The notes: generated by a model not told the origin, from the letters alone. A stretch of DNA of 64,000 bases from Candidatus Freyarchaeum deiterrae (GCA_037305845.1 CP147778.1:2496001-2560000), one strand, 5' to 3'; numbered from the stretch's first letter, positions 21,540-47,039 are shown. A program made the numbers and translations.

Positions 21540-23078
21540 TTATCGTTTAGAATCCCTGCCCTCTTTTAGATATATCCTCAACATTTCGGGGTTCCACTTC
21601 CACGTTTCGGTCTGGGGGTCGAAAAGCTTCGGTAGGGGGTAGTTGCTTCCCTCCTGCTTGCTTCTGAAACATAGTTTATAATCTGCTAATGTACGTAGAT
21701 TCTGGCGCACTACTCTCTCAAGTGGGGTGATGCTTCCCGGCGGGGTTTCCAACCAGCAGGCGAGAGCTGGAGGGTTATCCCCCTTAAGAGATTTCATCCA
21801 GTAGATCCAAGCTTTTGGCAGCTCTCTAACAGCAACCACGAACGCATTAAGAGTGTTCATATCCGACTCGACGATGAAGAGTATGCTCTCACTCAAACCT
21901 ATGTGCTCTATGCTTAGAAACGGCAGAAGTATTCCACCCTCAAAGAGGCTATTCTTGGTTTTTTCCGCAGCGCGCATATCGTATTCGAGCTTCTTGCTCA
22001 ACTCTAGTGTGGGTTTATCCGCTCTTTCGAGCATCTCAACGATGAGCTTCAGGTCCTCAGTGGTGATACGCTTTCTTTTTTTGGGTGGTTCGGGTAAGGA
22101 ATTTGGCTCTTCTATTTTCTTTTTCTGGGGGATAACCTTGTCCCACCCCTTGTTGAGCACATTACTGAGGTAAAGTGACCAGGAATCCCAATCAATGCTC
22201 CAATCTTCCTTATCCGCATCATAAAAGCCGAACGAGTTGGAGCCCTCAAATCCATCGACTTCCCAGATCCATAGTTTTGAGAATCTCTTCCCGAAATCTT
22301 TGTGAACCTGGCTAACCGCGCCGGAAGGTACCGCGATTGAGAAGAGGGTGTATGAGTCCACGCCCAAGAGTTCTTGTCTCGAGAGGAGATACGGGCTCTC
22401 CACGTAGGCTTCACCCTCAACAATGACCACCAGATTAGAGAGGCCTATCTTTGAGTAATCCAATCGTGTGCCCACTCTTAGGCGGCACCTTTCCTCAAGT
22501 TCCTTCTTACGGTACAAAGCCGTCTTATAGCTCATATTGGTTTGCTTTTGAATATCGGCTATGGAGATAAACAGGTCGTCGCACATCGCATTCAGAATCA
22601 TCAAATCCTTCGCGTCCAGCCTTACGCGATAATCGTAAACTATGTTAAATAGAGTTTGCCTAAACTGTTCCGAGGTAAGAATCTCCCCACTAAGCCTCTT
22701 ATACTTGTTCATCTGCCTAAGCTTCGAAACCACCAAAGGCAGAAACTCTCCCCCCATTATAGAATCAACTATCATCAAATCCCTAAACTTCTCTCCCGCC
22801 CCTTCCTCCAATCCCTTTTCACCCTTATACCTGTAGACAAAGAACTCGGTCAAGAGCTGTTTATCCTCCTCAGATAAAATACCAGGTAAAAACAAGTGAA
22901 ACAGGCCCTCCACCGGGAGACTGTCAGGATTAGCAACCTTTTCTAATGGCTCACTCTTAAGAAACTCCTTAATTTTTACAATTTCACTCATAAAAACGCC
23001 CTTCAGATTAAAACATATGCAAATAGATAAATAAAATTTAGCGATAATAGTCCATCTCACCAAAACAAAGGATAGCAA
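21540..23078 (-). CDS. large two-module winged-helix (Lrp/AsnC-like) regulator; true start probably MSEIVK near 22991
   Basis: Two repeats of L/I-x-x-x-DL-x-I...HTH...IGL (LDYSKIGL, SIEHIGL), each followed by a beta/alpha domain. Confidence 0.65.
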   Translation of the reverse strand: MLSFVLVRWTIIAKFYLSICICFNLKGVFMSEIVKIKEFLKSEPLEKVANPDSLPVEGLFHLFLPGILSEEDKQLLTEFFVYRYKGEKGLEEGAGEKFRDLMIVDSIMGGEFLPLVVSKLRQMNKYKRLSGEILTSEQFRQTLFNIVYDYRVRLDAKDLMILNAMCDDLFISIADIQKQTNMSYKTALYRKKELEERCRLRVGTRLDYSKIGLSNLVVIVEGEAYVESPYLLSRQELLGVDSYTLFSIAVPSGAVSQVHKDFGKRFSKLWIWEVDGFEGSNSFGFYDADKEDWSIDWDSWSLYLSNVLNKGWDKVIPQKKKIEEPNSLPEPPKKRKRITTEDLKLIVEMLERADKPTLELSKKLEYDMRAAEKTKNSLFEGGILLPFLSIEHIGLSESILFIVESDMNTLNAFVVAVRELPKAWIYWMKSLKGDNPPALACWLETPPGSITPLERVVRQNLRTLADYKLCFRSKQEGSNYPLPKLFDPQTETWKWNPEMLRIYLKEGRDSKR

Positions 23079-23284
23079 TCAAGAAAAAGCACCACCACAA
23101 ACCGCCAAAGTGGCTATTTTCCCGTATCCTCAACAAAAATTAGAAGTGTATTCCTTTTACAAAAATCTTATTCGGAGTATTTTGAATTTTTTTCAAATAA
23201 AAAGTTGAAGGCAACGTTAACAATAACATTATTAACATTTTTTCGAAAAGCGGAGTTCTTGAAGAAACATGTTCAAGAGTTCTG

Positions 23285-24007
23285 CTATAAGAGTTTTTTA
23301 ACTGTCTCCTTTAGTTTCTCTGAATCAATAATGTTGATGGGGTTTAAGTGATAATCCTTCTTACACAGTGACAGAATTATCTGTGCATCCTCTCCCTCCC
23401 TACAATCTACAAGGTTGAACAAAATTTCTGGATCAGTAACGCCGTTACTCAGGAGCTCCCAGAAAAATTCAGCCTGTAGCGCTAGAAGCCTGAGTTTTCC
23501 GCTGAGAATGATTTCAATAGATTCGGTGTAGTGGGAAGCCTCCGAAAGAAGATTCTCCATAAGCCAGCACCGTGTTTTCGCAACATCTACGTTAAGCCAC
23601 TTTCGATTATTCAAGTCATAAACAGCAACATTATGCTTGCTAAGTTCTTTTTCATCGGGAAGAGACACACACGAAGCCACCCACCCGGTGTCAAAACTCT
23701 CCATAAGCCGCGTGAGGAAATCCGATGAGATGCCCGAAGCCAGGTATATTACTCTCTCTGACCTACCGTTCTGTTCCCCTTCAAACAGGGCTTTGAGCTC
23801 CTCCATGCCGTTGTCAAAATCCTCTGAAATATCCAGCTCGTATTCCCACAACTGTCGGTGGGGGGCAAACGCAGTCACCTCTCTGAGAACGTTGCTATTT
23901 AGAAAGCCAAATAGGAGCACTGGGCGTCTCAGGGTGAAAATCAACTGCCCTAGCACTGCCAGACCCTTATCGCTGAAATATTTAGAAAGCTCTTTCAAAG
24001 AGTTCAC
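23285..24007 (-). CDS. hypothetical protein, translationally coupled to the MglA-like GTPase
   Basis: 4-bp GTGA overlap with upstream GTPase. Confidence 0.65.
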   Translation of the reverse strand: MNSLKELSKYFSDKGLAVLGQLIFTLRRPVLLFGFLNSNVLREVTAFAPHRQLWEYELDISEDFDNGMEELKALFEGEQNGRSERVIYLASGISSDFLTRLMESFDTGWVASCVSLPDEKELSKHNVAVYDLNNRKWLNVDVAKTRCWLMENLLSEASHYTESIEIILSGKLRLLALQAEFFWELLSNGVTDPEILFNLVDCREGEDAQIILSLCKKDYHLNPINIIDSEKLKETVKKLL

Positions 24008-24582
24008 CGAGACTTGTTTTTGATGGCTAAACGTATCATACCCCGAAATACTTCGTATACACCCTCACCGGTTGCCGCTGAAGCGGGATAAACTCGAATG
24101 CCCCTAGGTAAACCCATTTCTTTTCTTAGTTTTTCCGCTGGGACTGCTTTGGGCAAGTCCTGTTTGTTCGCCTCAACTACTATTGGGATTTTGTTTTCTG
24201 TGAAGGCTATGAGCTCTTCAAAGCTTCTCACATTATCCTTCAATTTGTGTTCCTGTGAATCAGCGACGAAGAGAACACTATCCGCGTTTCTCGCAACCTG
24301 TTCCCTAGTTGCCAGAAACCTTTTTTGACCTGTTGTTGTGTGGACGTGGAACACGAAACAGTAAGGGGGAAACTCTAGTTGTAGAGCCAGGTAATCCTCC
24401 CAAATAGTGCGGCCCTCGCTAGTTGAGATTTCGTAGGGCTCGCCAATTATGTTATTTGGAAAAAGCTTCGCTAAAGCACGGATGTTTGTTGTTTTCCCAG
24501 ATGACGCGGGTCCCCAAAAGACAATCTTCAACTGCACCATTTTTTCTTCTGGCAAATCTCTCTGAAACTTTTCTGCCTCCAA
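24004..24582 (-). CDS. MglA-like small GTPase
   Basis: KIVFWGPASSGKTTN (G1), EGRT (G2 with intrinsic Arg), TTGQ (G3, MglA-type), FVADSQ, NKQD (G4), ASA (G5). Confidence 0.88.
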   Translation of the reverse strand: MEAEKFQRDLPEEKMVQLKIVFWGPASSGKTTNIRALAKLFPNNIIGEPYEISTSEGRTIWEDYLALQLEFPPYCFVFHVHTTTGQKRFLATREQVARNADSVLFVADSQEHKLKDNVRSFEELIAFTENKIPIVVEANKQDLPKAVPAEKLRKEMGLPRGIRVYPASAATGEGVYEVFRGMIRLAIKNKSR

Positions 24583-24598
24583 TTCTATCTAACTCCTT

Positions 24599-25183
24599 TT
24601 ACTTCGTTTCTCTTATGAGAGCGGCGTCCAGTATGTGCAGGACGTCCTCGATCTGCTCCTCACTTGCTTCAATGGTTTTTCTTATTGGCTCACTGTTCTT
24701 AATATCTTCTTGGATTCGCTTCACGTATTGGCTCATCTTCGCACGGATAAATCCAATATTCGCTTTCTCGGTAGCAAAAATCAGAAGCAGCAAAGACTTA
24801 TTTTCGTCAAGGTCACCGATTTTGCAGACGTAGAACTGTTTTGAATCGTACATAATCATCGCGTTCTGGAACGCGTCTGCACCCAGATGGGTCTCTCCTT
24901 GTTTTGCTATACCGGCCAAAGCTGCGCCCAAGGCTCCTGCATTCCAAGCGTTTTTTACATGAAAGAACCTAGATTTTGCTAAAGCCTTACCGTCGCTATC
25001 TACCAGTAGTAAACCCTCTATGTCGCCTTTACCAAGCATTCTCTTGTAAGATTCCAGTAGACTGTCTAGTGTATCTGAAACCCTGTTAGTCAGGTAAAAA
25101 TATCTGTGCTGTGTCTCGTTATTATTTTCTGGTGTTTGTTGAACTTTTCCAGTTGAGAAAAATTCCGAATCCATTTCATTCAC
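24599..25183 (-). CDS. roadblock/LC7 (MglB-like) protein with N- and C-terminal extensions
   Basis: IEGLLLVDSDGKAL, GALGAAL, LLLIF..KANIGFIR; directly upstream of the MglA-like gene. Confidence 0.82.
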   Translation of the reverse strand: MNEMDSEFFSTGKVQQTPENNNETQHRYFYLTNRVSDTLDSLLESYKRMLGKGDIEGLLLVDSDGKALAKSRFFHVKNAWNAGALGAALAGIAKQGETHLGADAFQNAMIMYDSKQFYVCKIGDLDENKSLLLLIFATEKANIGFIRAKMSQYVKRIQEDIKNSEPIRKTIEASEEQIEDVLHILDAALIRETK

Positions 25184-25238: not shown

Positions 25239-26216
25239 TTAGAGAGTGGTTTGTACGAGTTGCGATTCCTTGTAAGCCTTCACCAATCTCCTAATTCCCT
25301 TATCTATCCTCTCAGGCTTCATACTAAACTCCTCCAACAGTCGCCTGAGAGAACCAGTATTAGGAGCATTGAATATTATCTGAGGTTCCACAACATCGGG
25401 GTTTAGAAAAATCTCCCTAACACCTTCCACATCAAAAGGTTCCAACCCCGCTCCAGAAAATACTCCCCTAATATCCCCATGTTTTCGAATCAGTTTCAAC
25501 GCCTTTTTTGCTCCCACCTTCTTAACTCCCAAGTTAAAGTCAGTTCCCACAAGGATTGCCAAGTCTACAAGCTGCTCATAAGAAATGTTTTGCAGCTTCA
25601 GAACCTCTTCCAGAGTTGCACACTGAACATTGTTTTCCGTTAGATCCAGATTCCTCAAGATTGACCTAGCCCCAAAGAGCAGAGCGTCGTAATCCTGTGT
25701 GAGAACATGATCAGCCTTCCCTATCCGAGTCATGTAAGCCGCCTCCGCCTCTCCCTCTCCCGGAGACTTTACCCAGGGCACCCCCATAGTGGTGAGTAAT
25801 TTCTGGGTTTCGTTTATGATGGTATCGTATAAAATCTCATTGGATAATGATAGGGTTCTAGCTACATTGTAATTCTTGTTCTCTCTTGCTTTTCTCAGAT
25901 AACTGTACTCCTTAACCAGAGATTCCACCAGATGCTCCCTCCTCTCCTTCAGCCTCGGATGCGCTCCATCAAACACAATTATCGGTTTAATATTATGTTC
26001 CAAAAAGTTAGTGGTTCTATAAAACACACCATAAATGTGAGAGACCACACGACCCTCATAGTTAAAGAGAGGGAGATTCTGCCTCCTAATCTTATTTAAG
26101 AACTGAAACAGCATGTTTGAAGCGTCCACTGCTACCCTAGTATGCTCCAGTTGGTCTAGGGAAAGGGTTTTGAAGTTAACTATAGAAGCAAGTTTTACTC
26201 CCATCTTTTTCACCAT
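25239..26216 (-). CDS. flap endonuclease FEN1/XPG family (divergent copy)
   Basis: MGV start, VAVDASN, VFDG, GEGEAEAAY, QDYDALLFG, ILVGTDFN.GVKKVGAKKA. Confidence 0.9.
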   Translation of the reverse strand: MVKKMGVKLASIVNFKTLSLDQLEHTRVAVDASNMLFQFLNKIRRQNLPLFNYEGRVVSHIYGVFYRTTNFLEHNIKPIIVFDGAHPRLKERREHLVESLVKEYSYLRKARENKNYNVARTLSLSNEILYDTIINETQKLLTTMGVPWVKSPGEGEAEAAYMTRIGKADHVLTQDYDALLFGARSILRNLDLTENNVQCATLEEVLKLQNISYEQLVDLAILVGTDFNLGVKKVGAKKALKLIRKHGDIRGVFSGAGLEPFDVEGVREIFLNPDVVEPQIIFNAPNTGSLRRLLEEFSMKPERIDKGIRRLVKAYKESQLVQTTL

Positions 26217-27353
26217 CTATTTTTCGGCTTTCAGTATTTTTCTCATTTCTTCGATTCTTTCGTTTACCATTCTTTTCTGCTCCGAGCCCTCCTCGGACGA
26301 ATCCTCAATTTTAAATTGAGAAATTTTATTCAAAATCTCCTCCGCCCTATCTTTTTCACCCCTTGAAAGAAGGTAATCTAAGTAAATATTTAGGGCAACC
26401 AATAGATGCACTCTGGTATACCATCTCTCAAAGATTTGAATCGCCTTCTCAAAAGCCTCAACAACTCTCTGATCATTTTTTAACATAATATTCGAAACTC
26501 CTATGTGAAAGAGAGTGATAGCTTCTCCGGGTTGGCTGCCTTCCTCCCTCGAAATCGTAAAAGCTTTGTTGAACTGTTCAAGAGCCTCCCCCACTTTTCC
26601 TAATTTAAGAAGAACGGTTCCTACTCTTATACGGCAAAGCGGCTCCTCTACCCCATCATGTATTTCTTCTTTGATTTTCGCCGCTTCGAAATATGATTCA
26701 AGAGCCTCATCCAGTCTCCCCAGTCTCTCATGTATGACTCCGATTTCCCATAAACAAACACCTTTGGTTTTAGTGTCCTCTAATTCTTCTGAAAGTCGAA
26801 GAGCTTCCTGATATTTTTTGTAGGCTTTCTCATATCTCTGCATACCGAACAAAATGTCTCCCATTCTAACAAGAACCTCTAATACACCATCCTTTTCTAC
26901 ATTCTGAATAGCTTGGTAGGCCTGTTCAGAATGCTTCAAAGCCTTCTCCAAATCATCCATCAACCATAAGATTGTACTTATGTGAAAATGAACAGAACCC
27001 AAATTCAGCAAGTCCCCAAGCTCCCCGTAAATAGCCGCAGCCTCCGAGTAACACTTTACAGCATCATCCCCCCTCTCTTTGCTCCACATTAGACGCCCCA
27101 TTCTCGTCAGGCAATCACCCTCTGATGCCTTATCACCTTTTTCTCTGCTCAACTCCAGAATAAGGTTTAGAACCCTTTCCGCTGCATCGTGATGGTAAAG
27201 CTTCGTGCACTGATTAGCCACATTCAGCATGAACCTAGAAATGGACTCCCATTCCCTACCCTTCCCTTTCATAACGTCTATGATATCCTGAGGTTCAGCT
27301 CCTCGCGAAATCAGACTGGCTACACCGTAAACACTATTAATCAAACTTAGCAT
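26217..27353 (-). CDS. tetratricopeptide repeat protein
   Basis: ~40-aa TPR-like repeats (G..L..IG.IH..LG.LDEAL..Y..A..I). Confidence 0.85.
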   Translation of the reverse strand: MLSLINSVYGVASLISRGAEPQDIIDVMKGKGREWESISRFMLNVANQCTKLYHHDAAERVLNLILELSREKGDKASEGDCLTRMGRLMWSKERGDDAVKCYSEAAAIYGELGDLLNLGSVHFHISTILWLMDDLEKALKHSEQAYQAIQNVEKDGVLEVLVRMGDILFGMQRYEKAYKKYQEALRLSEELEDTKTKGVCLWEIGVIHERLGRLDEALESYFEAAKIKEEIHDGVEEPLCRIRVGTVLLKLGKVGEALEQFNKAFTISREEGSQPGEAITLFHIGVSNIMLKNDQRVVEAFEKAIQIFERWYTRVHLLVALNIYLDYLLSRGEKDRAEEILNKISQFKIEDSSEEGSEQKRMVNERIEEMRKILKAEK

Positions 27354-28677
27354 CCTCCTCGTAGGATTTCCCCTCGGTGGCGTTCATCGAAATTTGAATA
27401 GGTAGAAGTTCAGATACTTCCTTCGAATTATACTTCTCCGTGTATTTCCTTCTCCTAATGAGATTGTATTCAATTTCGCCTCTTTTCTCGGTGTTCACCT
27501 GTCTTATTATCCGCGTCATATCTCCCCCTGTTCCAACAAAGAAAAGGCAAGCACCCCAAAGCCCGCAGCTCTTAGCGTCTATCATCCTCTGACACTTAAC
27601 TCTCGCCTCCGTTAGTTTCTTCTCCAAGCCTGGTTGCATAAGAAGACTTCCATCCCGACTCATGGACAACATAGTGATTAGGGAGGCCGGGTCATTCTTC
27701 TTGAATTTGTTAGACGCCAATCCCTCAATATTGCGTTTTAGTTCTTTTTCGGCTGTTCTAAATTCCTTATCCAGATTAAAAACAGGTCGCAAAAGGAGTA
27801 CGTAACCGGCACTCTCCTTCTCGAAATCCACGCCGCTCAAAACTCTTTCTAAGATTGGTTTCGTCTCTGTACTAAGAACTAATTCGTTAACACTGAGCTG
27901 ATCCAAATACTGTTTATCCAGTTTTTCAATATGATTACCATCACTTGCTAGCAGTGGTGAATATAAGCAGCGTTCAATCTCCAACTCATCAACTATTAAC
28001 CTCGTATCGTAACCCTCTTTTTCCAGTATAGCTCTGAAGAGGCTCATTTTTTTCCTCACCTGCTCCACCGCCTCACCGAAATTCCTGGAAGTCTCCCAAA
28101 CTGAGACAAAAGTGTACAACGCTTCATCCATCCTATAAGTTTCGAAGCTGAGATTGATTTTTTCCTTCCAGGCGGATAACAAAACCGAAACCCCGGTGCC
28201 ACTACCCTTTACTTCGGTGAATTGCAACACTTGGAAACCCTTTCTGCCACTTCTGAAGACTACACAATCATCCAAAATAGCGTCAGGCACAACGTAACGG
28301 GGAAATTTGCCCCTGACCCAGAGCAGAGGGATATCTCCTGAGTTGCGTCTTATTAATATTAAAACTACTAACGTTGCTGCCTCAACAGCGATAGTTATTA
28401 TGGCAGGAATTCCATGACTCAACCCTAGTCCAATAAAACCAATGCACATATTGACGGTTCCCACTCCCAATACGATTAGACTCGACTTACTGAACCGCCT
28501 GTCAAAAACGAACCTGGCTAGAGGATAAAGCACCAAATAAACCGCTAGAATGTAGAGAAGACCGAGAGGGCTGCCATTGAAGCAAGCCGTTATCCCAGTT
28601 TCTATTAATCTAATGAGGAAAGCAATTCCTACTGCCAACGCGAATATTATGGCTATATAATAGATTTCTTTAAACAT
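27337..28677 (-). CDS. membrane protein (4 N-terminal TM helices) with cytoplasmic domain
   Basis: Four hydrophobic segments in aa 1-110; overlaps both neighbours (operon). Confidence 0.75.
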   Translation of the reverse strand: MFKEIYYIAIIFALAVGIAFLIRLIETGITACFNGSPLGLLYILAVYLVLYPLARFVFDRRFSKSSLIVLGVGTVNMCIGFIGLGLSHGIPAIITIAVEAATLVVLILIRRNSGDIPLLWVRGKFPRYVVPDAILDDCVVFRSGRKGFQVLQFTEVKGSGTGVSVLLSAWKEKINLSFETYRMDEALYTFVSVWETSRNFGEAVEQVRKKMSLFRAILEKEGYDTRLIVDELEIERCLYSPLLASDGNHIEKLDKQYLDQLSVNELVLSTETKPILERVLSGVDFEKESAGYVLLLRPVFNLDKEFRTAEKELKRNIEGLASNKFKKNDPASLITMLSMSRDGSLLMQPGLEKKLTEARVKCQRMIDAKSCGLWGACLFFVGTGGDMTRIIRQVNTEKRGEIEYNLIRRRKYTEKYNSKEVSELLPIQISMNATEGKSYEEDAKFD

Positions 28678-29459
28678 TTTTCACCAACCTTCCTTAATTT
28701 TTCCTGAAGTTCTGAATCAACAGAACTTATTCCTCCATTTGTAATCTGGTAGTAGACCCTACCACTCAGGTCACGGTAATGGCTGATAATTTCCGCCTCC
28801 ATGACTGGCTTCACAGGAAGCCCTGAAAGATGTAGTGTTATCTGGCAAAACTTGTTCAAACCCCCACCGGCTGCAGGAACCGTTTTACCCTCTTCTCCGT
28901 CTTCTACCTTAGAAACCACCTGGTTCAGTACAAGTACTGCTATGTCTCGCCTCCTCCTGCATAAACCCAGCATTTCAGGCAACTGTTTCTCCACAACATC
29001 TCGGTATCGGGAAAAACTAGTTTCAGGAGAGAGCCCCTCGCGGTACTGGGAGGCAATCGTGTCTACCACTATAAGTCTAGTTCTATTCGAGACATAAGCA
29101 TCCAGAACGCTGATTATCTCCGTTTGTTCGTCCAAACTCTTAGGAACAATTAGCGTTAATCTCTCCAGCGAATTCTCATCTTGGAAGAGTTGAGAGAACC
29201 TTTGGAAAGAGAACCTGTTATCACAGTCGATGTAAAGTGTTTGATAGCCTTCCTCGGATAGGTGGCCCGCCGCCTGCATGGCTATCGTAGTCTTACCCGT
29301 GGCAGCCTCCCCGTAGATGTGGGTAATTATCCCGGTTGGTATACCTCCTCCAATTAAATCGTCTATTGGACTATGCGTTCTGACACAAGACACTTCATAT
29401 TCACCCCTAAAGGTAAGTGAATTCAACACCACCACTTCTCCTAACCAGCATTCCCTCAC
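28653..29459 (-). CDS. RadB-like RecA-family ATPase
   Basis: LIGGGIPTG.ITHIYGEAATGKTT, LYID, LIVVDTIASQYR, VLVLNQV; no N-terminal HhH. Confidence 0.85.
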   Translation of the reverse strand: MRECWLGEVVVLNSLTFRGEYEVSCVRTHSPIDDLIGGGIPTGIITHIYGEAATGKTTIAMQAAGHLSEEGYQTLYIDCDNRFSFQRFSQLFQDENSLERLTLIVPKSLDEQTEIISVLDAYVSNRTRLIVVDTIASQYREGLSPETSFSRYRDVVEKQLPEMLGLCRRRRDIAVLVLNQVVSKVEDGEEGKTVPAAGGGLNKFCQITLHLSGLPVKPVMEAEIISHYRDLSGRVYYQITNGGISSVDSELQEKLRKVGEKCLKKSII

Positions 29460-29826
29460 TCTCCATGTAATCCAACCTCTTGAGCACCCAATCTTTAGCT
29501 AATCCTATTTTTTCAGCGTTTCTTACTATGTCTTGAACTGGAATCACTTTACTTTCCCGAAGGCTCTGGATAACGCTCTCCAATTTCTCGGTCTTGGTAT
29601 CCATTCCCAATGCATTGTACCTCTCCCCCATCTTCTCAGCCTGCCTCCTCTGAACAAGTTTCGCCCCTGTTTTCCAAGAGTCGACGATATCCCCATGTAA
29701 CCGCTGCGGGTTCAATTTCTCCCCGCATCTCGGGCAGGAAGGCTTCTTGCTGAGGGCGGCTGCAAAGTATTGTTTACATGACGGGCACTCTGCCACCATG
29801 TACTCCCTTTTTCCCATATTTCTCAA
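29407..29826 (-). CDS. zinc-ribbon + winged-helix protein (DUF1922-like)
   Basis: CPSC...CPRCG followed by wHTH-like RLDYMESEGML. Confidence 0.65.
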   Translation of the reverse strand: MRNMGKREYMVAECPSCKQYFAAALSKKPSCPRCGEKLNPQRLHGDIVDSWKTGAKLVQRRQAEKMGERYNALGMDTKTEKLESVIQSLRESKVIPVQDIVRNAEKIGLAKDWVLKRLDYMESEGMLVRRSGGVEFTYL

Positions 29827-32029: not shown

Positions 32030-33928
32030 CTACTCACCTAAAAAATCATTCCAACTATCGAGTGATTCTTCTGTTTTGGTTGTTTCAGGTTTGTTCGACC
32101 TTTTTGCACGATAATTTTCCATAATCAGTTTCTTAAGCTGCTGAGGTTCATAGTCAATTTTGCTACTTATTCCTCCGTCTCGTGAAACAATTATCTGAGC
32201 CTTACCATTAACAACATGCTCATAGGTTTCAAGAGGCACATCGGGATATTCCCTCTTAAGACTCTCAACAAAACTCGCCACCTCAGGGCTCTGGGTAACG
32301 ACCAAAATAGCAGAGTACCCGTTTCCACTTCCAGAATCAAAGAGCCTCCTCAACTCATTCTTAATACCATCATCAGTACACATCGTCTCAATAACGGAAT
32401 CACAATTGGTTACTTCAGCCTCGGTTTCAACCACTCGACCACTTTTTGGAACAAGGGGCTCAGCATACAACTTTTCAGGCTCCTCGATTACAGACTTCCT
32501 TTTCCCAGCCTTAGACTTCACCCTAATTCCACTCTCTTTCGCCCTCTTAGAGCTCTTCTTCTCAGTTCGCGGAGCAGATACAGTATTGAAACTACGCGCA
32601 TCTTTCTTAGACAAATCTTTCCGATTCCTTACTGCAACCCTTTCAACAGAGTCCGCTTCAAAAGTAGCAGTGGCTGACACCGAAGATTGTAGGTCAGTAA
32701 GAAGTTTCTGAGCATTTTCAAATAATCTCGAAACATCCGCTTCACCCAGCTTCTGAGGAGTGTTTATTTCTAAGAATTGCTGAAACCCTTTCAGATTCAA
32801 TCCAGTCTTTTCACAAACAAATTCCGCAACTTGTTGCAGAGACCCAAACGATGCTTTCCCAGTTATTTTCACGTAAATTTCCTTTAACCCAGAACTCACC
32901 GCCCCTTTCAAGTGATAGGTACAGTTATCCCAGTCACCCTCAGCATACGATTTCTGTGCTAAATCCCATAGTCCCTCTCTTCTCTGGGCGAAAAATTTGC
33001 TATTGTTTCCTCCCTCTGTTAATAGGGGCTCAACATATTCCTCAACCTCCAACACCTTTGGAGCTTCCTCATCAGTAACGGGTTGAGAAACAGAGCTAAG
33101 CCTAAGCCTAGTGAGTTGTTTTGGAGATTCCGGGACTGTTTCGGATTTCCTTGAAATGGTTTGAGGGGGTATATCTCTTGCTGAATCTTGCACTGCGGTT
33201 AGCTCTTCCCTCAAGAGTTTTTTAAAATTGGCGACTCCCAATTCGTGTATAGCAAGTGATGCGGTAATGGTTGCTACAACGAGAACGGAGTCCAAGGTAA
33301 GCAGCGCTTGGAAAGACGCGGTGGTTTCGCTGAGAAATATTAACGGAACGAGCAGGGCTATAAGAGCCACGGTCAGGATTAACCCTTTTCTCGCACGTGA
33401 GTAGGCTTTCTGTAAAACCTCCGCCTTATTAGGTTTAAAAATTCTGTTGGCTTTCTTCAAAACATAGTTCCGCCTGCTATGCAGCAAAGATGGCAAATCA
33501 GATAGGGAAACTATCTCAACCGAGTCAACCTTGGAATCCCCCTCCTGGCGAGAACCGCTCACCAGGATTTTATCTGCTACAATAATTATTTGCTTACCCA
33601 TGTAATAGGGGGCGTTCACACCAAATACCTTTTTTAGCTCTATGCCGCTTGGAGCATTCGGACCATTGACAAATTGATTAAGCAAAAAGCCAGAAAATCT
33701 AGACAGTGTACGTCTATCTTCTCTAATTTTCTCCATAGAAGTAGCTCTGTACACGACAGCATCAAGGACACTGTAACCCTTACTTTCATATATCTTCCAG
33801 GCCACACGCACAGGAATCTTCTGATAAGACTCTACATCATATCCGTTGTCGGAAAAAATACGCGAAGCCTCACCCTTGCGGGGAGGCTCATCTCCTATTT
33901 GCTTCGTTTTTATTTCCTCCATACACAC
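32030..33928 (-). CDS. two-TM membrane protein with several soluble domains
   Basis: Two hydrophobic helices aa ~183-230; a HEPN-like helix pair AQKSYAEGDWDNCTYHLKGAV; basic linker. Confidence 0.7.
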   Translation of the reverse strand: MCMEEIKTKQIGDEPPRKGEASRIFSDNGYDVESYQKIPVRVAWKIYESKGYSVLDAVVYRATSMEKIREDRRTLSRFSGFLLNQFVNGPNAPSGIELKKVFGVNAPYYMGKQIIIVADKILVSGSRQEGDSKVDSVEIVSLSDLPSLLHSRRNYVLKKANRIFKPNKAEVLQKAYSRARKGLILTVALIALLVPLIFLSETTASFQALLTLDSVLVVATITASLAIHELGVANFKKLLREELTAVQDSARDIPPQTISRKSETVPESPKQLTRLRLSSVSQPVTDEEAPKVLEVEEYVEPLLTEGGNNSKFFAQRREGLWDLAQKSYAEGDWDNCTYHLKGAVSSGLKEIYVKITGKASFGSLQQVAEFVCEKTGLNLKGFQQFLEINTPQKLGEADVSRLFENAQKLLTDLQSSVSATATFEADSVERVAVRNRKDLSKKDARSFNTVSAPRTEKKSSKRAKESGIRVKSKAGKRKSVIEEPEKLYAEPLVPKSGRVVETEAEVTNCDSVIETMCTDDGIKNELRRLFDSGSGNGYSAILVVTQSPEVASFVESLKREYPDVPLETYEHVVNGKAQIIVSRDGGISSKIDYEPQQLKKLIMENYRAKRSNKPETTKTEESLDSWNDFLGE

Positions 33929-34779: not shown

Positions 34780-34795
34780 GTAAGTCTTTATAAAG
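34780..34795 (+). promoter_or_regulatory. right-arm promoter (gtaagtctttataaag)
   Basis: 16/16 match to left-arm promoter; TTTATAAA TATA box. Confidence 0.7.
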
Positions 34796-38974: not shown

Positions 38975-39413
38975 ACAATTACTAGGTTGGATGGTTAACT
39001 CATTAATTTACGATGGGATTATACTCTTCATCGCATTTTTCATCGTGTTTCTGAGTCTAAAAGTAGCCATAACATTTCTAAGAGCAAACGAATCCCAAAC
39101 CGTTCCCCTGATTCCACCAAAGCTACCAGTGTCGGAAAAAGCTAATCCCTACGTCCAGCTAGCTGAAGCCCTAGAGAAGGGCGACCAAGGAGCATTATTA
39201 TGGCTGATGAGCCAAAACACAACCAAGAGCAGGATTCAAAAAACGCTAAACTCAGCTTCGGTGGACTTGTTTTTGGGAATAGCTTCCCTGTTAACAGTTT
39301 CCAGTGCTTATATCAAGATTAACGCTCTACCAGTGTCGGACTGGATAGTAATCCTAATGATTATAGCAGCCCTCATTCTTGTGGGCGTCTCATACCGGAG
39401 GGCGAAAGGTTGA
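38961..39413 (+). CDS. small membrane protein (~3 TM)
   Basis: Three hydrophobic segments; overlaps upstream gene. Confidence 0.7.
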   Translation: MIGIEQLLGWMVNSLIYDGIILFIAFFIVFLSLKVAITFLRANESQTVPLIPPKLPVSEKANPYVQLAEALEKGDQGALLWLMSQNTTKSRIQKTLNSASVDLFLGIASLLTVSSAYIKINALPVSDWIVILMIIAALILVGVSYRRAKG

Positions 39414-39529: not shown

Positions 39530-40378
39530 GTGTCTGCTGAAAATGAAGAAACAGAAAAAGAAAAAGAAGAACCCAAGGAACCATATATCAAGTGGAAAGA
39601 TAGAAACGCCAAACTTTTCAGCCTCAAGAACGTAGCCAAGTTCATGGTTGTAGCAGTCGTCAGCCTACTATCCTACTTTGCTTCAACAGCATATCTCTCA
39701 TATCCGTACTGGATAATAACGACCGCTCTATGCACCTACATCTCGATGTGCTCAGTGAATTCCAAGTTTGCTTCGCCATTTCTTAGATTGCTTAGTCGCG
39801 GAAAGTGGCCTAACAAAGACAAGTTCTCACTGGTCGATCCGTTACAGGACATGACCTTCTTCTTCATGGGAGGCGAGGATTCCGTTCTAATAATGCGTGA
39901 TAGCTACAAGCTTGCCGCCTACGCTATGATGAAGGTGGAGGAAATCCCCCTGAGCATAAGAGGAAGCTTCAACTACTTCTTCCGAACACTCTATCTCCAA
40001 AAAATACCAGTAACATACTTCGTGGAAAGCAGCCCGGTCTCAGAGAGAACGGTAAGGTTCCTACCAAACCTTGAGGAAGACAGCCGCCGATCCATCGCTA
40101 AGAGGGACAAGTCTCGCAGAAAAACTTACCTCTGGGGAGGCGGAGGCATCTGGACAACACGCATAGTCCTCGGAACCAAAAAGGAGACAATAGCACCAGT
40201 ACGCCTCGACAAATCAATTGGAAAACTTGTCGAAGAGGTCAAACAGAACGCTTTCACACTAGCCACAGCGTTTGAAAACTCTTACCCCCACTGCAAAATC
40301 GAACCCCTATTAGGCGAATCCCTGCTACAGGCTACAAAGGCTATGCTAACTGGCGGAGGGGTGTCCAATTTTTTCTAA
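39530..40378 (+). CDS. two-TM membrane protein; 0-frame half of a probable frameshift fusion with the downstream ATPase-like ORF
   Basis: ggagg SD + GTG; TM aa ~38-76; ends at T TTT TTC TAA. Confidence 0.75.
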   Translation: MSAENEETEKEKEEPKEPYIKWKDRNAKLFSLKNVAKFMVVAVVSLLSYFASTAYLSYPYWIITTALCTYISMCSVNSKFASPFLRLLSRGKWPNKDKFSLVDPLQDMTFFFMGGEDSVLIMRDSYKLAAYAMMKVEEIPLSIRGSFNYFFRTLYLQKIPVTYFVESSPVSERTVRFLPNLEEDSRRSIAKRDKSRRKTYLWGGGGIWTTRIVLGTKKETIAPVRLDKSIGKLVEEVKQNAFTLATAFENSYPHCKIEPLLGESLLQATKAMLTGGGVSNFF

Positions 40379-40402
40379 CCGGGTTGGAGTCGTCTCCAAC
40401 TT
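40355..40402 (+). other. putative programmed -1 ribosomal frameshift cassette
   Basis: GGAGG (40355-59), slippery T_TTT_TTC (40369-75), 5-nt spacer, hairpin gggttggag-tcgt-ctccaactt (40381-402); -1 frame open into the ATPase ORF. Confidence 0.65.
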
Positions 40403-41946
40403 TCGTGGACATAGCCACCTTCATGACCAAAGGCTTACCGGTCAAACCCGCCGCGGAATTCGTCAGCCCCTCAGTGGAATACGATTTTAAGCTGGGCAAG
40501 GTGCTTGAAACTGAGGTGTACAAGGAAGACGTAGACGTAGGACTAAAAATCGAACACCTAACGCGAGGAATCATGGTCGCTGGAGGAAGCCACAAGGAAC
40601 GCACCGCCACAAACCTAAGCATCATTTTCGAAGCTTCCAAATTTGCCTGGAACTATCTAATAGTGGACACCAAGAAAGAGTTCCGAAAACTGGTGAACAT
40701 GAACCCCGAAACAAGAGTGTACACCAGCAAAAGCATCTGCATAAACCCACTGGACCCCGAAGGCTCAAACGTTTCCGAGTACATTTCCCTGTTACTCAGA
40801 CTATTTCAGGTACTATGGGACCTCACCAACAGACAGAGTATCGGTCTGAACGAAGCCCTGAGAAGCATATACGAGAAACAGGACGGAGACGAAGCCCCCA
40901 CACTCGAGGACCTGAGAAATGCCCTACTTAATCAGAGCTCATCGAAGCTGCGGACACCCCAGGAGAGAGGCGAAACAGAGGAACTGATACGCGGCGTAAC
41001 GGGTCTGGTTCTCTCCGAAGAATCCCCCACAATAAACGGGCGCTCCACAGCACCCTTCGGAGAACTCACGACTAATCCCACAGTTATAGAAATTTCCAAA
41101 AAGGATCAGCTTTTCTCAAGCTTCTTCAAAGGACTAATGATAATCAAAGCCCTAGCCACGGAAAAAGGCAGATACTCCATATTTCTGGACGACGCAGAGG
41201 AGGTTTTCAAAAACGTAAGGTTCGGCTGGAAAACACAGCAAGTCTACTTCATGGAATCTCTAACCGCCTGGGTGGAAAGCCTCAAAGAAATGAAAGTGGG
41301 ATTACACATTTCAACAAGTCTACCACGATTAATATACGACCCCATCACCCCATCGATAGAAACACGAATATTCCATAAACTCGTTTCAAGCGATGACATA
41401 GAGGTAGGAGGAGATCTCATGGGACTGGATGAAAACGCCCCCGGAATACACTCCCTCAAGAGAGAACGACTCTACCAGAAAACCTACTTCAAATACCTGA
41501 AAGAGGGAGAAGCCATGTTCCACAGACCAGACCTACCCACAGGATTCCCCATAATCCTACAATACCCCGCAGGAGCAACCTCAAAGGCACCATCAGACCA
41601 AGAGATAAAAACCAGGATGGAAGAGCTCTACCCTCCACAGAACGTAAACCCGATGGAGAGTTTACCGTCCACGATACTCGAGAGAGACTTGAAAAACGAA
41701 ACTGAGAACGCCACAAAAATACTTAGTCTGCTCCACGAATACCCCCAACTATCACTAACAAATATTATACAGAGCCTAAAAACAGAAGTCGACTCGGAGA
41801 AGCTAAACTATCTAGTAGAGAAGCTCAAGGATCAGGAATACTTGAAGGAAACTCTGGAAATCTGGAAATCAAGAACCAAAAGAGTATACTCCCTTACGCT
41901 GAAGGGAGAACAGGCGCTAAAAGAATACACGGAATCCAAACGGTAA
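40384..41946 (+). CDS. HerA/VirB4/FtsK-superfamily ATPase-like protein with degenerate motifs and C-terminal wHTH
   Basis: LTRGIMVAGGSHKERT (Walker A position), LIVDTKKEF, INPLD, PTLEDL, IFLDDAE (Walker B position), LKEGEA, VYSLTLKG wing. Confidence 0.72.
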   Translation: MESSPTFVDIATFMTKGLPVKPAAEFVSPSVEYDFKLGKVLETEVYKEDVDVGLKIEHLTRGIMVAGGSHKERTATNLSIIFEASKFAWNYLIVDTKKEFRKLVNMNPETRVYTSKSICINPLDPEGSNVSEYISLLLRLFQVLWDLTNRQSIGLNEALRSIYEKQDGDEAPTLEDLRNALLNQSSSKLRTPQERGETEELIRGVTGLVLSEESPTINGRSTAPFGELTTNPTVIEISKKDQLFSSFFKGLMIIKALATEKGRYSIFLDDAEEVFKNVRFGWKTQQVYFMESLTAWVESLKEMKVGLHISTSLPRLIYDPITPSIETRIFHKLVSSDDIEVGGDLMGLDENAPGIHSLKRERLYQKTYFKYLKEGEAMFHRPDLPTGFPIILQYPAGATSKAPSDQEIKTRMEELYPPQNVNPMESLPSTILERDLKNETENATKILSLLHEYPQLSLTNIIQSLKTEVDSEKLNYLVEKLKDQEYLKETLEIWKSRTKRVYSLTLKGEQALKEYTESKR

Positions 41947-42249: not shown

Positions 42250-42765
42250 TCATTTCTGTTCATCTCCTTCCGGTGTTTCAAGTTTTAATTTCTCATGGCT
42301 ATTCCTCAATTCAAGTAAATGCTGGTATTGCCAATCTCGTTCTTTGGCTACAGCAGCATCAGCATCAGAGGAGTTGGTGGCTCTATGAATAGCCTGTAAG
42401 GCATAAATTGCAGCACCAACAGAGTGAGCGGGAACATGTGCAGTTGCCACCGCTTGACCTGCGGCACGGGCAGCAGAACGAGCGGCATTATCCTCTCCTA
42501 CCTCGCGAGCAGCAGCATGAGCATCAAGTGAAGCTTTGCGTATTTCTGCCATCTTAAATATCCCTGTTCTTATCCATTTTTGGAGTGCTTCAATAGCTTT
42601 TCTAGGGCGATTATCTTGTGGGTATCTTTTCTCAAAATAGGGCAGGGCACGCTCAGCACAATCAATTGCCCAAATGGCTAATGCTTTTTTGTCAGTTTTT
42701 TTCACAAGCTCAACAATTCTCTCGTCTTTGTAGCGTGTAAGTGAAAATTTGGATTTTTCCTTCAT
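42250..42765 (-). CDS. putative immunity protein (Imm5-like)
   Basis: LAIWAIDCAERALPYFE..PQDNRPRKAIEA, AHAAAR, ARAAGQAVATAH. Confidence 0.75.
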   Translation of the reverse strand: MKEKSKFSLTRYKDERIVELVKKTDKKALAIWAIDCAERALPYFEKRYPQDNRPRKAIEALQKWIRTGIFKMAEIRKASLDAHAAAREVGEDNAARSAARAAGQAVATAHVPAHSVGAAIYALQAIHRATNSSDADAAVAKERDWQYQHLLELRNSHEKLKLETPEGDEQK

Positions 42766-43725: not shown

Positions 43726-44646
43726 CTAGAAATCCTCATCCTCCATTTCTTCCTCAGCATCGTCATCCCACTGACTCTCCGGAAAGAGTTTTTCATAATT
43801 TTTCTTCGTTCTTCTTTTCTCGGATTCCGGGAGTTGTCTCGGCTTACTCTCCTCCCTATTTCGGTTTCCACTATTGGGATTGGAATTGTGTTCCTTTCTG
43901 CTTCTTCCTCTGTAGGCTTTCTCCACCTTTGTTAGTCCTGGATTTCCCTCCGCCTTCGAGAGATGCGTTAACCCGGGTGGATTTTCATCAGGATCGTCTG
44001 GATAATCGGGATTAAGATTTGGATTTTGGTTATTGATTATGCCTTGTGTGTTCAGGTATGCTTCGTCTGATTGGTGTCTTGTCTTAAACATCCAGTATAA
44101 CTTTTTAGCTAGTGCGATGCTGATTATTGATGGGATTAAAACCAGTGCCAGTAGTCCAAGAGGGAAAGGTTGCATGATCAGCTGTGGGACCAGATACGTG
44201 TTCTCTGTATAGAGGAAAATTGCAATAATCGTGGTGATTGAGGCTGTGGATACTGGTGCTAGTCTTAAGAGCCATTTTATCTTCCTTTGGGCTAGTAAAA
44301 CTACGGTTGCTGATATCATTGTGGAAGAAAACAGGCTTACCAACTCCTTTTGCATCATGTATACTCCCGCCCAGTCGGGAAGAGCAGAGTAAAACACTAG
44401 GTAGAGGAATGGGAAAAGAATTAAACCAGAAGCGAACCTCCAGTGGTTTATGAAAAATTTAATGGTTGACCATACGAACCAGAATGTTAAGCGTACCTGA
44501 TCTCTTATAATCAAATACACTAGGGTAAGTTTCCCCTTCACGGCGAGGAAACCTAAGCATAAGACATTGATTACAATAATTATTATTACTATGGTCAAAA
44601 CGCTGCTAAGCATGGATGAGAGATTAGAAAAGAAGCTTTCAAACAT
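43726..44646 (-). CDS. polytopic membrane protein (~6 TM) with disordered acidic C-terminal tail
   Basis: Hydrophobic aa 10-180; ggagtga SD; N/P/E/D-rich tail. Confidence 0.75.
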   Translation of the reverse strand: MFESFFSNLSSMLSSVLTIVIIIIVINVLCLGFLAVKGKLTLVYLIIRDQVRLTFWFVWSTIKFFINHWRFASGLILFPFLYLVFYSALPDWAGVYMMQKELVSLFSSTMISATVVLLAQRKIKWLLRLAPVSTASITTIIAIFLYTENTYLVPQLIMQPFPLGLLALVLIPSIISIALAKKLYWMFKTRHQSDEAYLNTQGIINNQNPNLNPDYPDDPDENPPGLTHLSKAEGNPGLTKVEKAYRGRSRKEHNSNPNSGNRNREESKPRQLPESEKRRTKKNYEKLFPESQWDDDAEEEMEDEDF

Positions 44647-44744
44647 CTTATATCACTCCCATTCTTAGTTCTTGAATCAGAATATTTATCGAAATTATAA
44701 TTGTGATTAAAAAAAAAGGAAAATTGAGTTTGGGGATTGTTGCT

Positions 44745-47039
44745 TTAATTCTCTCCATCGTCCCACCCTTCCTCGTTTCCTCCTGTGCCAGATCCGTCGA
44801 GCATCCGATTATTAAGAAATTCGCTTCTGTTTTTCCTAAGCCGCGTGAACAATACTACGCTACCCAGCAATCCGAATCCGGTAACTGCCAGAACGCTAGG
44901 CAGAGTGAAGCCAGAGATGTTAGGGTCTAACAGAGAAAGCCCCGCCAATACGTTTAGTGAAGCACCCCCACCTCCTGAAGATGAAGATGTTACTCTGATT
45001 GAACTGCTTGTGGTAGCGATGGTGTAAGACTGGTTGAAGAACATCAGTATATTGTAATCTCCGGTGTATTGCGGCGTCCATTGGGTTTGGAAACAAGTCA
45101 GGTTACTGATAGTGTACATCCCTGAGAATACGGCGTTATTGTCGAGATCCGTTACCAGAAGAGTTACTGGGTCGTTAAGGTTAGGTGTGAAGCCGAGTGA
45201 ACTGAATTTCGCATTAATCTGGAGACTTCCTCCCAGTGTAATCTGTCCATTATTGGCATTGGTTTCAAGACCTGCTACAAGTTGAGAAGCTGAGAATTCC
45301 AAACCCGTGGTTACAGGGTCTAAGGTTGAGTTACCGGGGAACGTGAAGAATACGCTGTGAATTCCTCTAGTGCTTGGAGCCCACCCCAGAGAGAAAAGGC
45401 TGTCAATTCCCGTGTATATGGAGCAATTCACCATACGACCATCAGGACAGTAAATGGTTACATTTATACCAATGCTGCCCCCAAGAGGCTGTGAATTCAG
45501 AGTTAGGTTTCCCTCAAAGTTCAGGGTGTCCCCCACAGTTATACCGGAATTTGTACCGACAAGATTTACCGATAGCGCTGGTTTGCCTCTGACTGTTACC
45601 TGGGCGGCGGTCCAGTTCTTTGGCTGGCCGTCGTAATTCTTAATCCAGGCTACGATTTCGTATATTCCGATTCCCACGGGAACCCAGTTGTATGCAGCAT
45701 AACCCGAACTGTTGCTGACCTCGGAGTCCAAGAGTGTGTATAAATCAGGGTTGTTAGTGAAAGTTGCTCCTGGATAGGTTATCCGGTTTATTATGCTCAA
45801 GTAGACGACTAATCCTGGAGCGGGGTTACCCCCTGCTGTTACGCAGGCGTTTAGCAGTACCACGCCTCCGCTGAGGTATATGGTGCTGGGTGTGGCGTTG
45901 AATGCTGTTATCTTGTAATCGGTGGGTTGTACGGTGAACGATTCAAGGAAGAATAGTGTCCCATCCGTCACATTTATGGTGTAGCTGGGGCTGGGGATTG
46001 AAGGTATTTGAAATGAGGTGTAAACCGGTCCGCTGCTGCTTGTGACTACTTGGTCGGTGTGCACCGTGGTTTGGTTCCAGTCGATAACCTTCACATTGAG
46101 GTTTACTCCTCCGTAAAAGGTTAGATTTAGATTGTTTCTCGCGGCTATGCTTATGTTAGCTACTTCTGAGGCGTTGTATGAGTAATAATCTGGTTCTATT
46201 TGAATGCTGTAGGGGTTTTTATTCTTAAGCCAGTAGAGTATGTTCATCAGGGTTTGCAGGCAACTATATCCATTGGGGTCTTGGCTAATGGTTGTTATGT
46301 TTTGTAACGCCCAGTGTACCAAGTAGGGGTTTACCGAATAACTACTATAGATGCTCAAGAAGTACTCATTGAATTCTTCCCAGTCCATTGCCAGCGGAAT
46401 CAATTGTGTGGAGTTGGTTAGGGTTAGATTGTCATTGGATAGGGGTAGCTCGAAGTATCTTTGGGATACCTGCCCGTAGAGTTCCTGGGTGGTATAATTC
46501 ACTCGGTTGGGGTACTGGAATACTATGTGGTAGTGGGTGTCCCAGTTGTTGGGGCCGTATGTAATCTCAAGCCAGTGAATCGATGTGACTTTAGTGATTT
46601 TTAGAGGGGTTATCTGGGCTCCGAGATTGTTAAGAAACTCGTACCCGCCATCGCCCACAGCTAGTACTGGTTTACCGATTCCTGCTATGGTTTGAGATTC
46701 AGTCTGGTTCAGTCCTTTACAGGAAGTGTCCAAAATGAGAATATCAAAAGCACTGGCAATGGAAGAATTACTGACCAAGTTTTCTAAATAGACCTGTGTT
46801 AAGGTAAAGCCCTCTGCTTGGAGAGTGTTGTTCCAATCGTTGAAATAGTTGTTGCTACCGTTGGTGATAAAGAGGATGCTCGGCTGATTGGATTTAGAAT
46901 ATGCTGGGTTGTTATTGTTAACTCCTAGGGAAACATAGTTGAGAACAGTTGTTTGCGGTGATGCTGTTGTTAGTAAAGTAAGTTCAGTTAACGATAGTAG
47001 CGTTAAAATTAGAGCTATTATGAGTAATTTTTTCTTCAG
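44745..47039 (-). CDS. large surface glycoprotein (GATase-like domain + Ig-like domains, C-terminal TM); extended to a CTG start
   Basis: Frame is open 87 codons upstream of the track start, giving signal peptide (M)KKKLLIIALILTLLSL after aggagagga SD; Ig-like WxPxxxGxY repeats; TM followed by RLRK. Confidence 0.8.
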   Translation of the reverse strand: MKKKLLIIALILTLLSLTELTLLTTASPQTTVLNYVSLGVNNNNPAYSKSNQPSILFITNGSNNYFNDWNNTLQAEGFTLTQVYLENLVSNSSIASAFDILILDTSCKGLNQTESQTIAGIGKPVLAVGDGGYEFLNNLGAQITPLKITKVTSIHWLEITYGPNNWDTHYHIVFQYPNRVNYTTQELYGQVSQRYFELPLSNDNLTLTNSTQLIPLAMDWEEFNEYFLSIYSSYSVNPYLVHWALQNITTISQDPNGYSCLQTLMNILYWLKNKNPYSIQIEPDYYSYNASEVANISIAARNNLNLTFYGGVNLNVKVIDWNQTTVHTDQVVTSSSGPVYTSFQIPSIPSPSYTINVTDGTLFFLESFTVQPTDYKITAFNATPSTIYLSGGVVLLNACVTAGGNPAPGLVVYLSIINRITYPGATFTNNPDLYTLLDSEVSNSSGYAAYNWVPVGIGIYEIVAWIKNYDGQPKNWTAAQVTVRGKPALSVNLVGTNSGITVGDTLNFEGNLTLNSQPLGGSIGINVTIYCPDGRMVNCSIYTGIDSLFSLGWAPSTRGIHSVFFTFPGNSTLDPVTTGLEFSASQLVAGLETNANNGQITLGGSLQINAKFSSLGFTPNLNDPVTLLVTDLDNNAVFSGMYTISNLTCFQTQWTPQYTGDYNILMFFNQSYTIATTSSSIRVTSSSSGGGGASLNVLAGLSLLDPNISGFTLPSVLAVTGFGLLGSVVLFTRLRKNRSEFLNNRMLDGSGTGGNEEGWDDGEN

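Follow-up and report, generated by a model that had tools for sequence, protein, structure and literature searches.

In the archaeal DNA importers Ced (Sulfolobales, Desulfurococcales) and Ted (Thermoproteales), chromosomal genes encode a membrane-anchored, VirB4-derived machinery in which the N-terminal domain of VirB4 is split over separate genes and which is tied to recombination genes (PMC9905601, PMC11868833, PMC11823120). CedB and CedD of Ced each carry a different part of this domain and CedD is required for DNA import (PMC11868833, PMC11823120); a split VirB4 thus has a precedent in DNA import. Here, we analysed a gene cluster of the Asgard archaeon Candidatus Freyarchaeum deiterrae that is alike in these respects, located at positions 21540-47039 of a 64,000-nucleotide (nt) stretch of the chromosome (GCA_037305845.1 CP147778.1:2496001-2560000), called the window below; coordinates refer to the window unless given as genome coordinates. 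A preliminary description of the window had proposed a mating-like system of DNA exchange through cell contact. We find that the cluster belongs to the class of domesticated type IV secretion parts. It is probably a machine that brings in DNA from neighbours and recombines it, and we give an even chance to our preferred reading of the locus, a chromosomal, co-regulated programme of recipient-side DNA uptake at the membrane and recombination. A second VirB4-derived protein, the geometry of the operator and the duplicated promoters go beyond the first reading.

The origin of sex raises the question of how recombination took place among the ancestors of eukaryotes. The cluster makes this question testable: it provides a defined set of genes, an operator sequence and a marker that over half of Asgard genomes carry. 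In the literature searched we found no description of this gene set and no DNA-exchange system for Asgard archaea; the Ced and Ted papers do not mention Asgards, and type IV filaments are reported to be scarce in these archaea (PMC13705601).

The membrane proteins and recombination enzymes on which the comparison rests are the following (TM, transmembrane helix; aa, amino acids; HhH, helix-hairpin-helix; dN/dS, ratio of nonsynonymous to synonymous substitution rates; pLDDT, predicted local distance difference test).

25239..26216, minus strand: FEN1 paralogue that retains all acidic catalytic residues; PCNA-binding box at the C terminus shortened
27337..28677, minus strand: 4-TM protein, complete VirB4 N-terminal domain by its model (pLDDT 70), no ATPase domain
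28653..29459, minus strand: RadB-like paralogue of Rad51 fold; Walker A intact
29823..32024, minus strand: Hel308 paralogue with an inserted SWIM zinc finger; motifs I, II, III and VI intact; candidate motor
35222..36289, plus strand: full-length RadA paralogue that retains the HhH domain, Walker A/B, the catalytic Glu and the L1 arginine
38961..39413, plus strand: 150-aa membrane protein; no family match
39530..40378, plus strand: 2-TM protein, half of a VirB4 N-terminal domain by alignments
40384..41946, plus strand: ATP-dead protein of the VirB4/HerA family with a C-terminal PadR-like winged helix; dN/dS ~0.11
43726..44646, minus strand: polytopic membrane protein of ~5 TM, only in Freya/Jordarchaeia-like sequences; candidate channel

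An open reading frame (ORF) scan with Pfam over 21540-47039 recovered every gene of the preliminary description, with strands and coordinates as given there and tight packing. Pfam labels comprise Hel308 DEAD, Helicase_C and archaeal domain 4, the Rad51 fold for RadA and the RadB-like protein, XPG_N/XPG_I, Roadblock, an Arf/Ras-type GTPase, TPR, M28 and HTH_24. Two tightly packed operons diverge, with intergenic gaps of -53 to +55 nt on the left and of -14 to +18 nt on the right, bar one of 116 nt. The large winged-helix gene that had been counted in the left operon lies 206 nt beyond it, maybe on its own transcript.

Relation to Ced, Ted and competence

The cluster works most like Ced and Ted or like a competence regulon, but is a member of neither. 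It differs from Ced and Ted in its dead Walker A motif, in an extra protein with the VirB4 N-terminal domain and no ATPase domain, in its own RadA, RadB-like protein, Hel308-SWIM and FEN1, and in its regulatory site, which is another one. No CedA/TedA or CedA1/TedC was recognised here, the CedB model found no match at the locus, and the best NCBIfam match of the dead ATPase, CedD, reached 32 bits, far below the cut-off of 600. Since ATPase competence and the threshold for CedB/CedD orthology both failed, the cluster is not a Ced or Ted system. Bacterial competence regulons comprise ComEC, ComFA, DprA and RecA. As in these regulons, surface, membrane and recombination genes share a promoter signal, and a superfamily 2 helicase is a possible motor; in contrast to them, the locus holds no ComEC, ComEA or type IV pilus gene, and its membrane parts derive from VirB4.

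A dead ATPase and VirB4 domains in both arms

The ORF at 40384..41946 had been described as HerA/VirB4-like. Its VirB4 ancestry holds, but it lacks the Walker A lysine, as do all its close relatives; the lysine is kept in 7 of 137 aligned sequences, all seven of them distant. Because this lysine is missing, the protein is no working ATPase and cannot be the motor. The gene for the 2-TM half domain is fused to that of the dead ATPase in Thorarchaeia, Lokiarchaeia and other Asgard lineages (lineage labels of other genomes are inferred from their proteins). The model of a fused orthologue matched the VirB4 ATPase domain best (Z score 27.3, root-mean-square deviation (r.m.s.d.) 3.2, 327 aligned), with HerA at Z 25.3, and aligned, its N-terminal part included, to TrwK 224-804.

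The 4-TM protein of the left arm is predicted to fold as a whole VirB4 N-terminal domain. Its model matched TrwK/VirB4 with Z 17.8 (r.m.s.d. 4.0, 265 aligned; model 124-430 on chain 15-400), the runners-up being ESX EccE at Z 11 and unrelated entries at Z ≤8, and the top 14 rows of a Foldseek search were all entries of the R388 type IV secretion system. These fold matches, together with those of the fused orthologue, uphold the VirB4 ancestry claimed for the membrane module; with VirB4 parts in both arms, the arms are tied by ancestry as well as by promoter. A complex prediction for the 4-TM and 2-TM proteins scored 0.00 and was given no weight.

The likeness to the VirB3-VirB4 proteins of type IV secretion (R388 TrwK, T. 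pseudethanolicus VirB4) thus extends over the N-terminal fold and the ATPase domain, and the transmembrane helices are fused in front, at the place where VirB3 would act. Unlike a conjugative system, the locus has a dead ATPase with an added winged helix and does not lie on a mobile element; no VirB6, VirB8, coupling protein or relaxase was recognised, although no dedicated search was made for the relaxase.

The remaining membrane proteins gave few links. The polytopic ORF had no NCBIfam, Pfam TrbL/VirB6 or PDB sequence match. A profile comparison of 22 membrane families yielded links for two pairs only, and the polytopic, 150-aa, 632-aa and 200-aa proteins had no link to any other family. In atlas searches the 2-TM protein found a Thorarchaeota cluster; all other leads for it, for the polytopic protein and for the 4-TM protein were at or below the level of chance, or close to it. 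The operons hold no two-helix ORF of 60-110 aa, the VirB2-like pilin type.

Other VirB4-like ATPases are encoded elsewhere in the genome. A membrane-anchored one with an intact Walker A motif (genome 1048708-1051683) stands alone between UbiA-like and PGK-like genes; 46 of 61 Asgard genomes encode homologues. A Tad-like pilus locus (genome 1785430-1791522) encodes two platform proteins, an ATPase, a 68-aa pilin-like ORF and a divergent TFB paralogue, and lies 17 kb from the operator of one of two giant-protein genes described below; the same layout, with TFB paralogue, TadA-like ATPase and pilin-like ORF, recurs in loci of Thorarchaeia type and of TACK archaea, where an active VirB4-like ATPase is encoded beside it. 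An 829-aa active VirB4-like ATPase was rejected as an obligatory partner, being present in 6 of the 61 genomes only. Its locus (genome 1600451-1608473), patchy in Asgards, has upstream a two-helix pilin-like ORF of 111 aa and downstream an ORF of 1,696 aa, and adjoins an island with an SNF2 helicase and a methylase.

Recombination enzymes set apart from the housekeeping copies

The recombination genes had been taken for dedicated copies, and they are not the sole housekeeping orthologues: the genome encodes two RadA elsewhere, close canonical copies at genome 2323552 and 1520672, and one canonical RadB, Hel308 and FEN1 each. In the Hel308 tree, 17 cluster copies from many lineages form one clade (support 97) apart from canonical Hel308 (99), and the SWIM motif CxC...CxH occurs in all 17 aligned cluster copies and in no canonical Hel308. 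Every cluster copy of FEN1 falls outside the canonical clade (98/98). Twelve cluster copies of RadA form a clade (97/95), and a few from other lineages branch elsewhere; with TACK copies included, the clade is no longer resolved. An approximately unbiased (AU) test rejected a single clade for the three RadA of the Freyarchaeum genome (p 0.0002); the cluster RadA is therefore not a recent duplicate. The cluster enzymes thus branch as old, separate paralogues. A second Asgard RadA clade, of extra RadA paralogues, has been seen by phylogeny (PMC12722695). Judged by their motifs, RadA, the RadB-like protein, Hel308-SWIM and FEN1 appear catalytically intact; the FxxA filament motif of the RadA paralogue is altered in Freya/Jordarchaeia.

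A SWIM motif next to a RadB-like protein and RadA recalls the Shu complex, in which a SWIM protein acts with Rad51 paralogues (PMC5727457). Here the SWIM finger is inserted in Hel308, and the likeness to SWS1/Shu2 is one of motif and gene context.

The recombination genes vary in other lineages. Lokiarchaeia-type clusters have a RadA-like HhH domain fused to a membrane protein of 600-720 aa (L060:4915-6726, L049:5326-7506, L061, L064). Thorarchaeia-type clusters (L044, L052, L057-L059, L065-L067) add an XPD/Rad3-like helicase, a second half-domain VirB4-like 2-TM protein and a RadA-like ORF that lacks Walker A.

Conservation in Asgard and TACK archaea

The dead ATPase was found in 182 of 332 Asgard genomes, mostly as a single intact copy, and was not found in several Asgard families, some complete genomes included. 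Among 31 other neighbourhoods, 21 have Hel308-SWIM close to the dead ATPase, and several of those that do not are short contigs; RadA, the RadB-like protein, FEN1, a zinc-ribbon winged-helix protein, polytopic proteins and large surface proteins are often nearby as well. The gene set is thus co-conserved across Asgard lineages, and its order is almost fixed in Thorarchaeia. Of 61 genomes, 14 have a detectable 4-TM protein. Among TACK archaea, a Rad51-fold paralogue follows the dead ATPase on contigs of Thermoprotei, Verstraetearchaeota and Bathyarchaeia, with a 2-TM homologue upstream of the ATPase in three cases and, in one, a stand-alone SWIM ORF between RadA and the RadB-like gene. On two Thermoprotei-type contigs (L133:13398-15601, L136:13316-15598), the operon of dead ATPase and RadA is followed by Nre, a repair protein, and CdvA, a division protein.

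One operator and promoter design

The regulatory elements and the candidate regulator are the following (BRE, TFB-recognition element).

21540..23078, minus strand: large winged-helix regulator of Lrp/AsnC type (Pfam HTH_24), with a paralogue elsewhere; candidate operator binder
34237..34252, minus strand: BRE/TATA-like 16-mer of the left operon, with the same sequence as that of the right operon
34450..34478, minus strand: operator oriented towards the left operon; distance to the TATA box of this operon 233 nt
34554..34582, plus strand: operator oriented towards the right operon; distance to the TATA box of this operon 233 nt
34780..34795, plus strand: BRE/TATA-like 16-mer of the right operon, identical to the left one
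34821..34895, plus strand: conserved 9-bp stem with a variable loop (z -2.2) within the predicted 5' leader, its arms kept in congeners and in the duplicated promoters
47286..47314, minus strand: operator facing the convergent surface-protein unit

The promoter or operator motifs that the units had been noted to share were confirmed and exceed chance. All seven genomic copies of the palindrome TRTGTA-N17-TACAYA are intergenic, and three of them are in this locus; other spacings of the half-sites have 0-3 copies. The 29-bp operator is oriented, with the TATA box 231-233 nt from its start in five promoters; the sixth has TATA candidates at 211 and 232 nt and the seventh is a shortened copy. The 16-mer at the TATA box has two copies in 3.58 Mb, one in each divergent promoter. 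A matrix built from the seven operators scores 31-42 bits, against a maximum of 23 in shuffled genomes, scores that are circular for the seven training sites, four of which are copies of one duplicated promoter. Independent support comes from the spacing spectrum, the fixed distance to the TATA box and conservation in congeners: both operator positions, the TATA box and the leader stem are kept, with base changes, in three of them. The matrix fails to carry over to distant lineages. For archaea, a regulatory site with a constant spacing of ~230 nt to the TATA box would be unusual. The gene for the large winged-helix protein stands beside the cluster in congeners and in genome G049.

Copies of the right-hand promoter occur elsewhere at 74-84% identity, two of them before a 200-aa ORF and a giant protein and one before a HEAT-repeat cluster (genome 853141-860081: promoter, 259-aa ORF, then three HEAT-repeat proteins). 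By its sequence, one promoter design appears to serve three units. A shortened promoter copy lies at genome 2269651, with no clear gene.

Proposed mechanism and alternatives

Folds, motifs, synteny and promoter design are computed; every transport step, its direction, DNA as the substrate, cell contact and induction are inferred. In the recipient-side reading, the VirB4 parts would form an inner-membrane ring as in type IV secretion, with the dead ATPase as a scaffold or DNA guide and not a motor. Hel308-SWIM would pull or unwind the incoming strand, like ComFA in bacterial competence, possibly aided by the active membrane-anchored VirB4-like ATPase encoded elsewhere. SWIM and the RadB-like protein would load the private RadA, as Shu-type mediators load Rad51, and FEN1 would trim flaps after strand invasion. 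The surface proteins, with two giants in this strain, would give cell contact, and a regulator bound ~230 nt upstream of the TATA box would switch the units together.

In favour of this reading are the VirB4 folds of both membrane components, the CedD match and the split VirB4 of Ced, the recurring company of Hel308-SWIM and of the recombinase paralogues in Asgard and TACK archaea, the intact motifs of enzymes under purifying selection, the fusion of a RadA-like HhH domain to a membrane protein in Lokiarchaeia-type loci, the common operator and TATA geometry, and the wide distribution of the active membrane-anchored ATPase. Several observations weigh against it. The sole ATPase-fold membrane protein of the locus is dead, and sequence searches recognised no CedA/VirB6 channel, ComEC or VirB2-type pilin among its membrane ORFs, although families of VirB6-like channels and VirB2-like pilins escape such searches (PMC9905601). 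Polytopic proteins vary from lineage to lineage. Neither the active ATPase at genome 1048708 nor the Tad-like locus has an operator copy, so their partnership with the cluster is a lead only, and that active ATPase also occurs in genomes without the dead one.

A stronger version of the proposal is possible but doubtful: an ancient parasexual DNA-exchange machine of Asgard and some TACK archaea, of novel design, with a dead, split VirB4 ring, a pull by SWIM-Hel308, direct handover to a private recombinase with Shu-like mediators, and an activator site at ~230 nt. If true, such a machine would be the chief means of homologous exchange for the lineage from which eukaryotes arose. The suggested bearing on the origin of eukaryotic sex is unsupported at present, because the duplication of Rad51 and DMC1 is placed after the split from sampled Asgards (PMC12722695).

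An unlikely but serious alternative is that no DNA crosses the membrane and that the cluster is a membrane-tethered platform for repair or chromosome handling on the cell's own DNA, the dead VirB4 ring anchoring private RadA, RadB, Hel308 and FEN1, for example for the resolution of chromosomes in division or in long protrusions. Such a platform would agree with a transport ATPase dead in every close relative and ending in a winged helix of DNA-binding type, with the lack of a recognised channel or pilin, and with the minimal TACK unit of half domain, dead ATPase and Rad51-fold proteins, twice near Nre and CdvA. However, secreted surface proteins share its operons and operator, and large surface proteins recur beside the cluster elsewhere; a full housekeeping repair set exists; and the absence of the cluster from complete Asgard genomes fits an optional social trait.

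Recipient-side uptake also has to be weighed against donor-side or two-way chromosomal conjugation by a domesticated element, comparable to distributive conjugal transfer, in which helicase, RadA and FEN1 would prepare single strands for export through the VirB4-derived ring. We consider this improbable, even though VirB4 ancestry is the ancestry of exporters and the fold of the 4-TM protein, after TrwK/VirB4, matches ESX EccE best (Z 11). The locus encodes a recombinase for strand exchange, two mediator-like proteins and a flap nuclease, all of which are recipient functions. A relaxase would be needless if host enzymes make the strand, as proposed for Ced and Ted (PMC9905601), but these related archaeal systems are importers (PMC9905601, PMC11868833, PMC11823120).

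Surface proteins and giant cassettes

Two surface proteins are encoded at the locus.

36308..38974, plus strand: membrane-anchored surface protein with a degenerate M28 domain, in which Asn replaces the first His ligand that congeners have
44745..47039, minus strand: 764-aa secreted surface protein with a CTG start, a signal peptide and a C-terminal anchor

The second is a distant paralogue of the first (BLAST E 1e-7 over 106 aa), in agreement with the convergent unit and paralogous surface protein described earlier, and its CTG start at 47039 fits the end coordinate given there. This start has a clear ribosome-binding site; standard gene callers would drop 87 residues and, with them, the signal peptide.

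The duplicated promoter precedes a 200-aa membrane ORF and a giant protein in two cassettes (genome 1808425-1831953 and 2697103-2721299). The giants, of 7,241 and 7,416 aa, have DUF2341 and Ig-like domains and hydrophobic C termini; their N-terminal parts are 72-86% alike and their C-terminal parts 39%. They resemble giant adhesins or polymorphic toxins between microbes. Because the 200-aa partner was not found in five congeners, the cassettes do not count as part of a conserved core; the giants look like recent, strain-specific recruits to the regulon.

These proteins bring in another improbable alternative, contact-dependent protein delivery or killing with DNA salvage, like fratricide coupled to competence: the VirB4 parts would export surface or toxin-like proteins, and the recombination genes would use the released DNA. 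It draws on the promoter copies before two giants with conserved N-terminal (79-86%) and divergent C-terminal (39%) parts and before the HEAT-repeat cluster, on the Imm5, HEAT and TPR genes of the variable spacer between the arms, and on a weak C-terminal match of one giant to the 1,696-aa ORF beside the 829-aa active VirB4-like ATPase. Against it, no toxin domain was found in the giants, their cassettes look recent and strain-specific, given the distribution of the 200-aa partner, and the conserved core of the cluster consists of DNA enzymes.

Chromosomal setting and accessory genes

The host chromosome has 3,576,204 bp and a guanine-cytosine (GC) content of 40.7%; its close relatives are Jordarchaeum and Freyarchaeota. 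The locus had been described as lacking integrase, relaxase and capsid genes. This stands for integrase and phage structural genes: the genome's only tyrosine recombinase lies ~0.93 Mb away, and a PHROGs scan of ten locus ORFs gave generic helix-turn-helix or zinc-finger matches and no phage structural match. No relaxase is among the Pfam matches of the locus ORFs, archaeal relaxases being poorly modelled and no dedicated search having been made. A provirus, an integrated plasmid or a chance gathering of repair genes is largely refuted and very improbable, since, despite a GC content of 43.9% against 40.7 +/- 1.7% for the genome (~1.8 standard deviations above the mean) and flanking genes that vary among congeners, the 64-kb window has no tRNA, read mapping of the Freyarchaeum genome showed no integrated mobile element (PMC11529989), the dead ATPase is mostly present as one intact copy per genome, and the paralogue trees group by lineage. 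Values of dN/dS against a congener are 0.06-0.18 for eight locus genes, which appear to be under purifying selection.

The other genes of the locus are the following.

23285..24007, minus strand: 240-aa protein of no known family (no Pfam or PDB match), travelling with MglAB
24004..24582, minus strand: MglA-like small GTPase (Pfam Arf/Ras; dN/dS ~0.07), accessory
24599..25183, minus strand: MglB/Roadblock protein (Pfam Robl_LC7, weak), accessory
26217..27353, minus strand: TPR protein by Pfam
29407..29826, minus strand: zinc-ribbon and winged-helix protein, kept in the cluster across lineages
32030..33928, minus strand: 632-aa 2-TM protein; no family match
33940..34209, minus strand: small helix-turn-helix protein that opens the left operon
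34941..35222, plus strand: small cysteine-rich protein that opens the right operon
42250..42765, minus strand: Imm5-like putative immunity protein (Pfam PF21805, E 3e-44) in the variable spacer between the arms

A Roadblock gene does lie next to one for an MglA-type GTPase, as in the preliminary description, but MglAB and the 240-aa ORF stand beside the cluster in only 5 of 31 other neighbourhoods, so that MglAB is a lineage add-on and not part of the core. The 240-aa ORF adjoins MglAB in five other genomes (G002, G003, G005, G009, G014); no support was found for a DENN-like protein. The TPR gene, listed earlier as a component, is likewise a lineage add-on, absent from that place in three congeners. 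The spacer at 41947-43698 holds the Imm5-like gene, HEAT and small zinc-binding-type ORFs, and one congener (G002) has another, longer TPR/HEAT set there. The small cysteine-rich protein has two stand-alone paralogues elsewhere (genome 2966043 and 215842), with 60-67% identity over ~55 aa.

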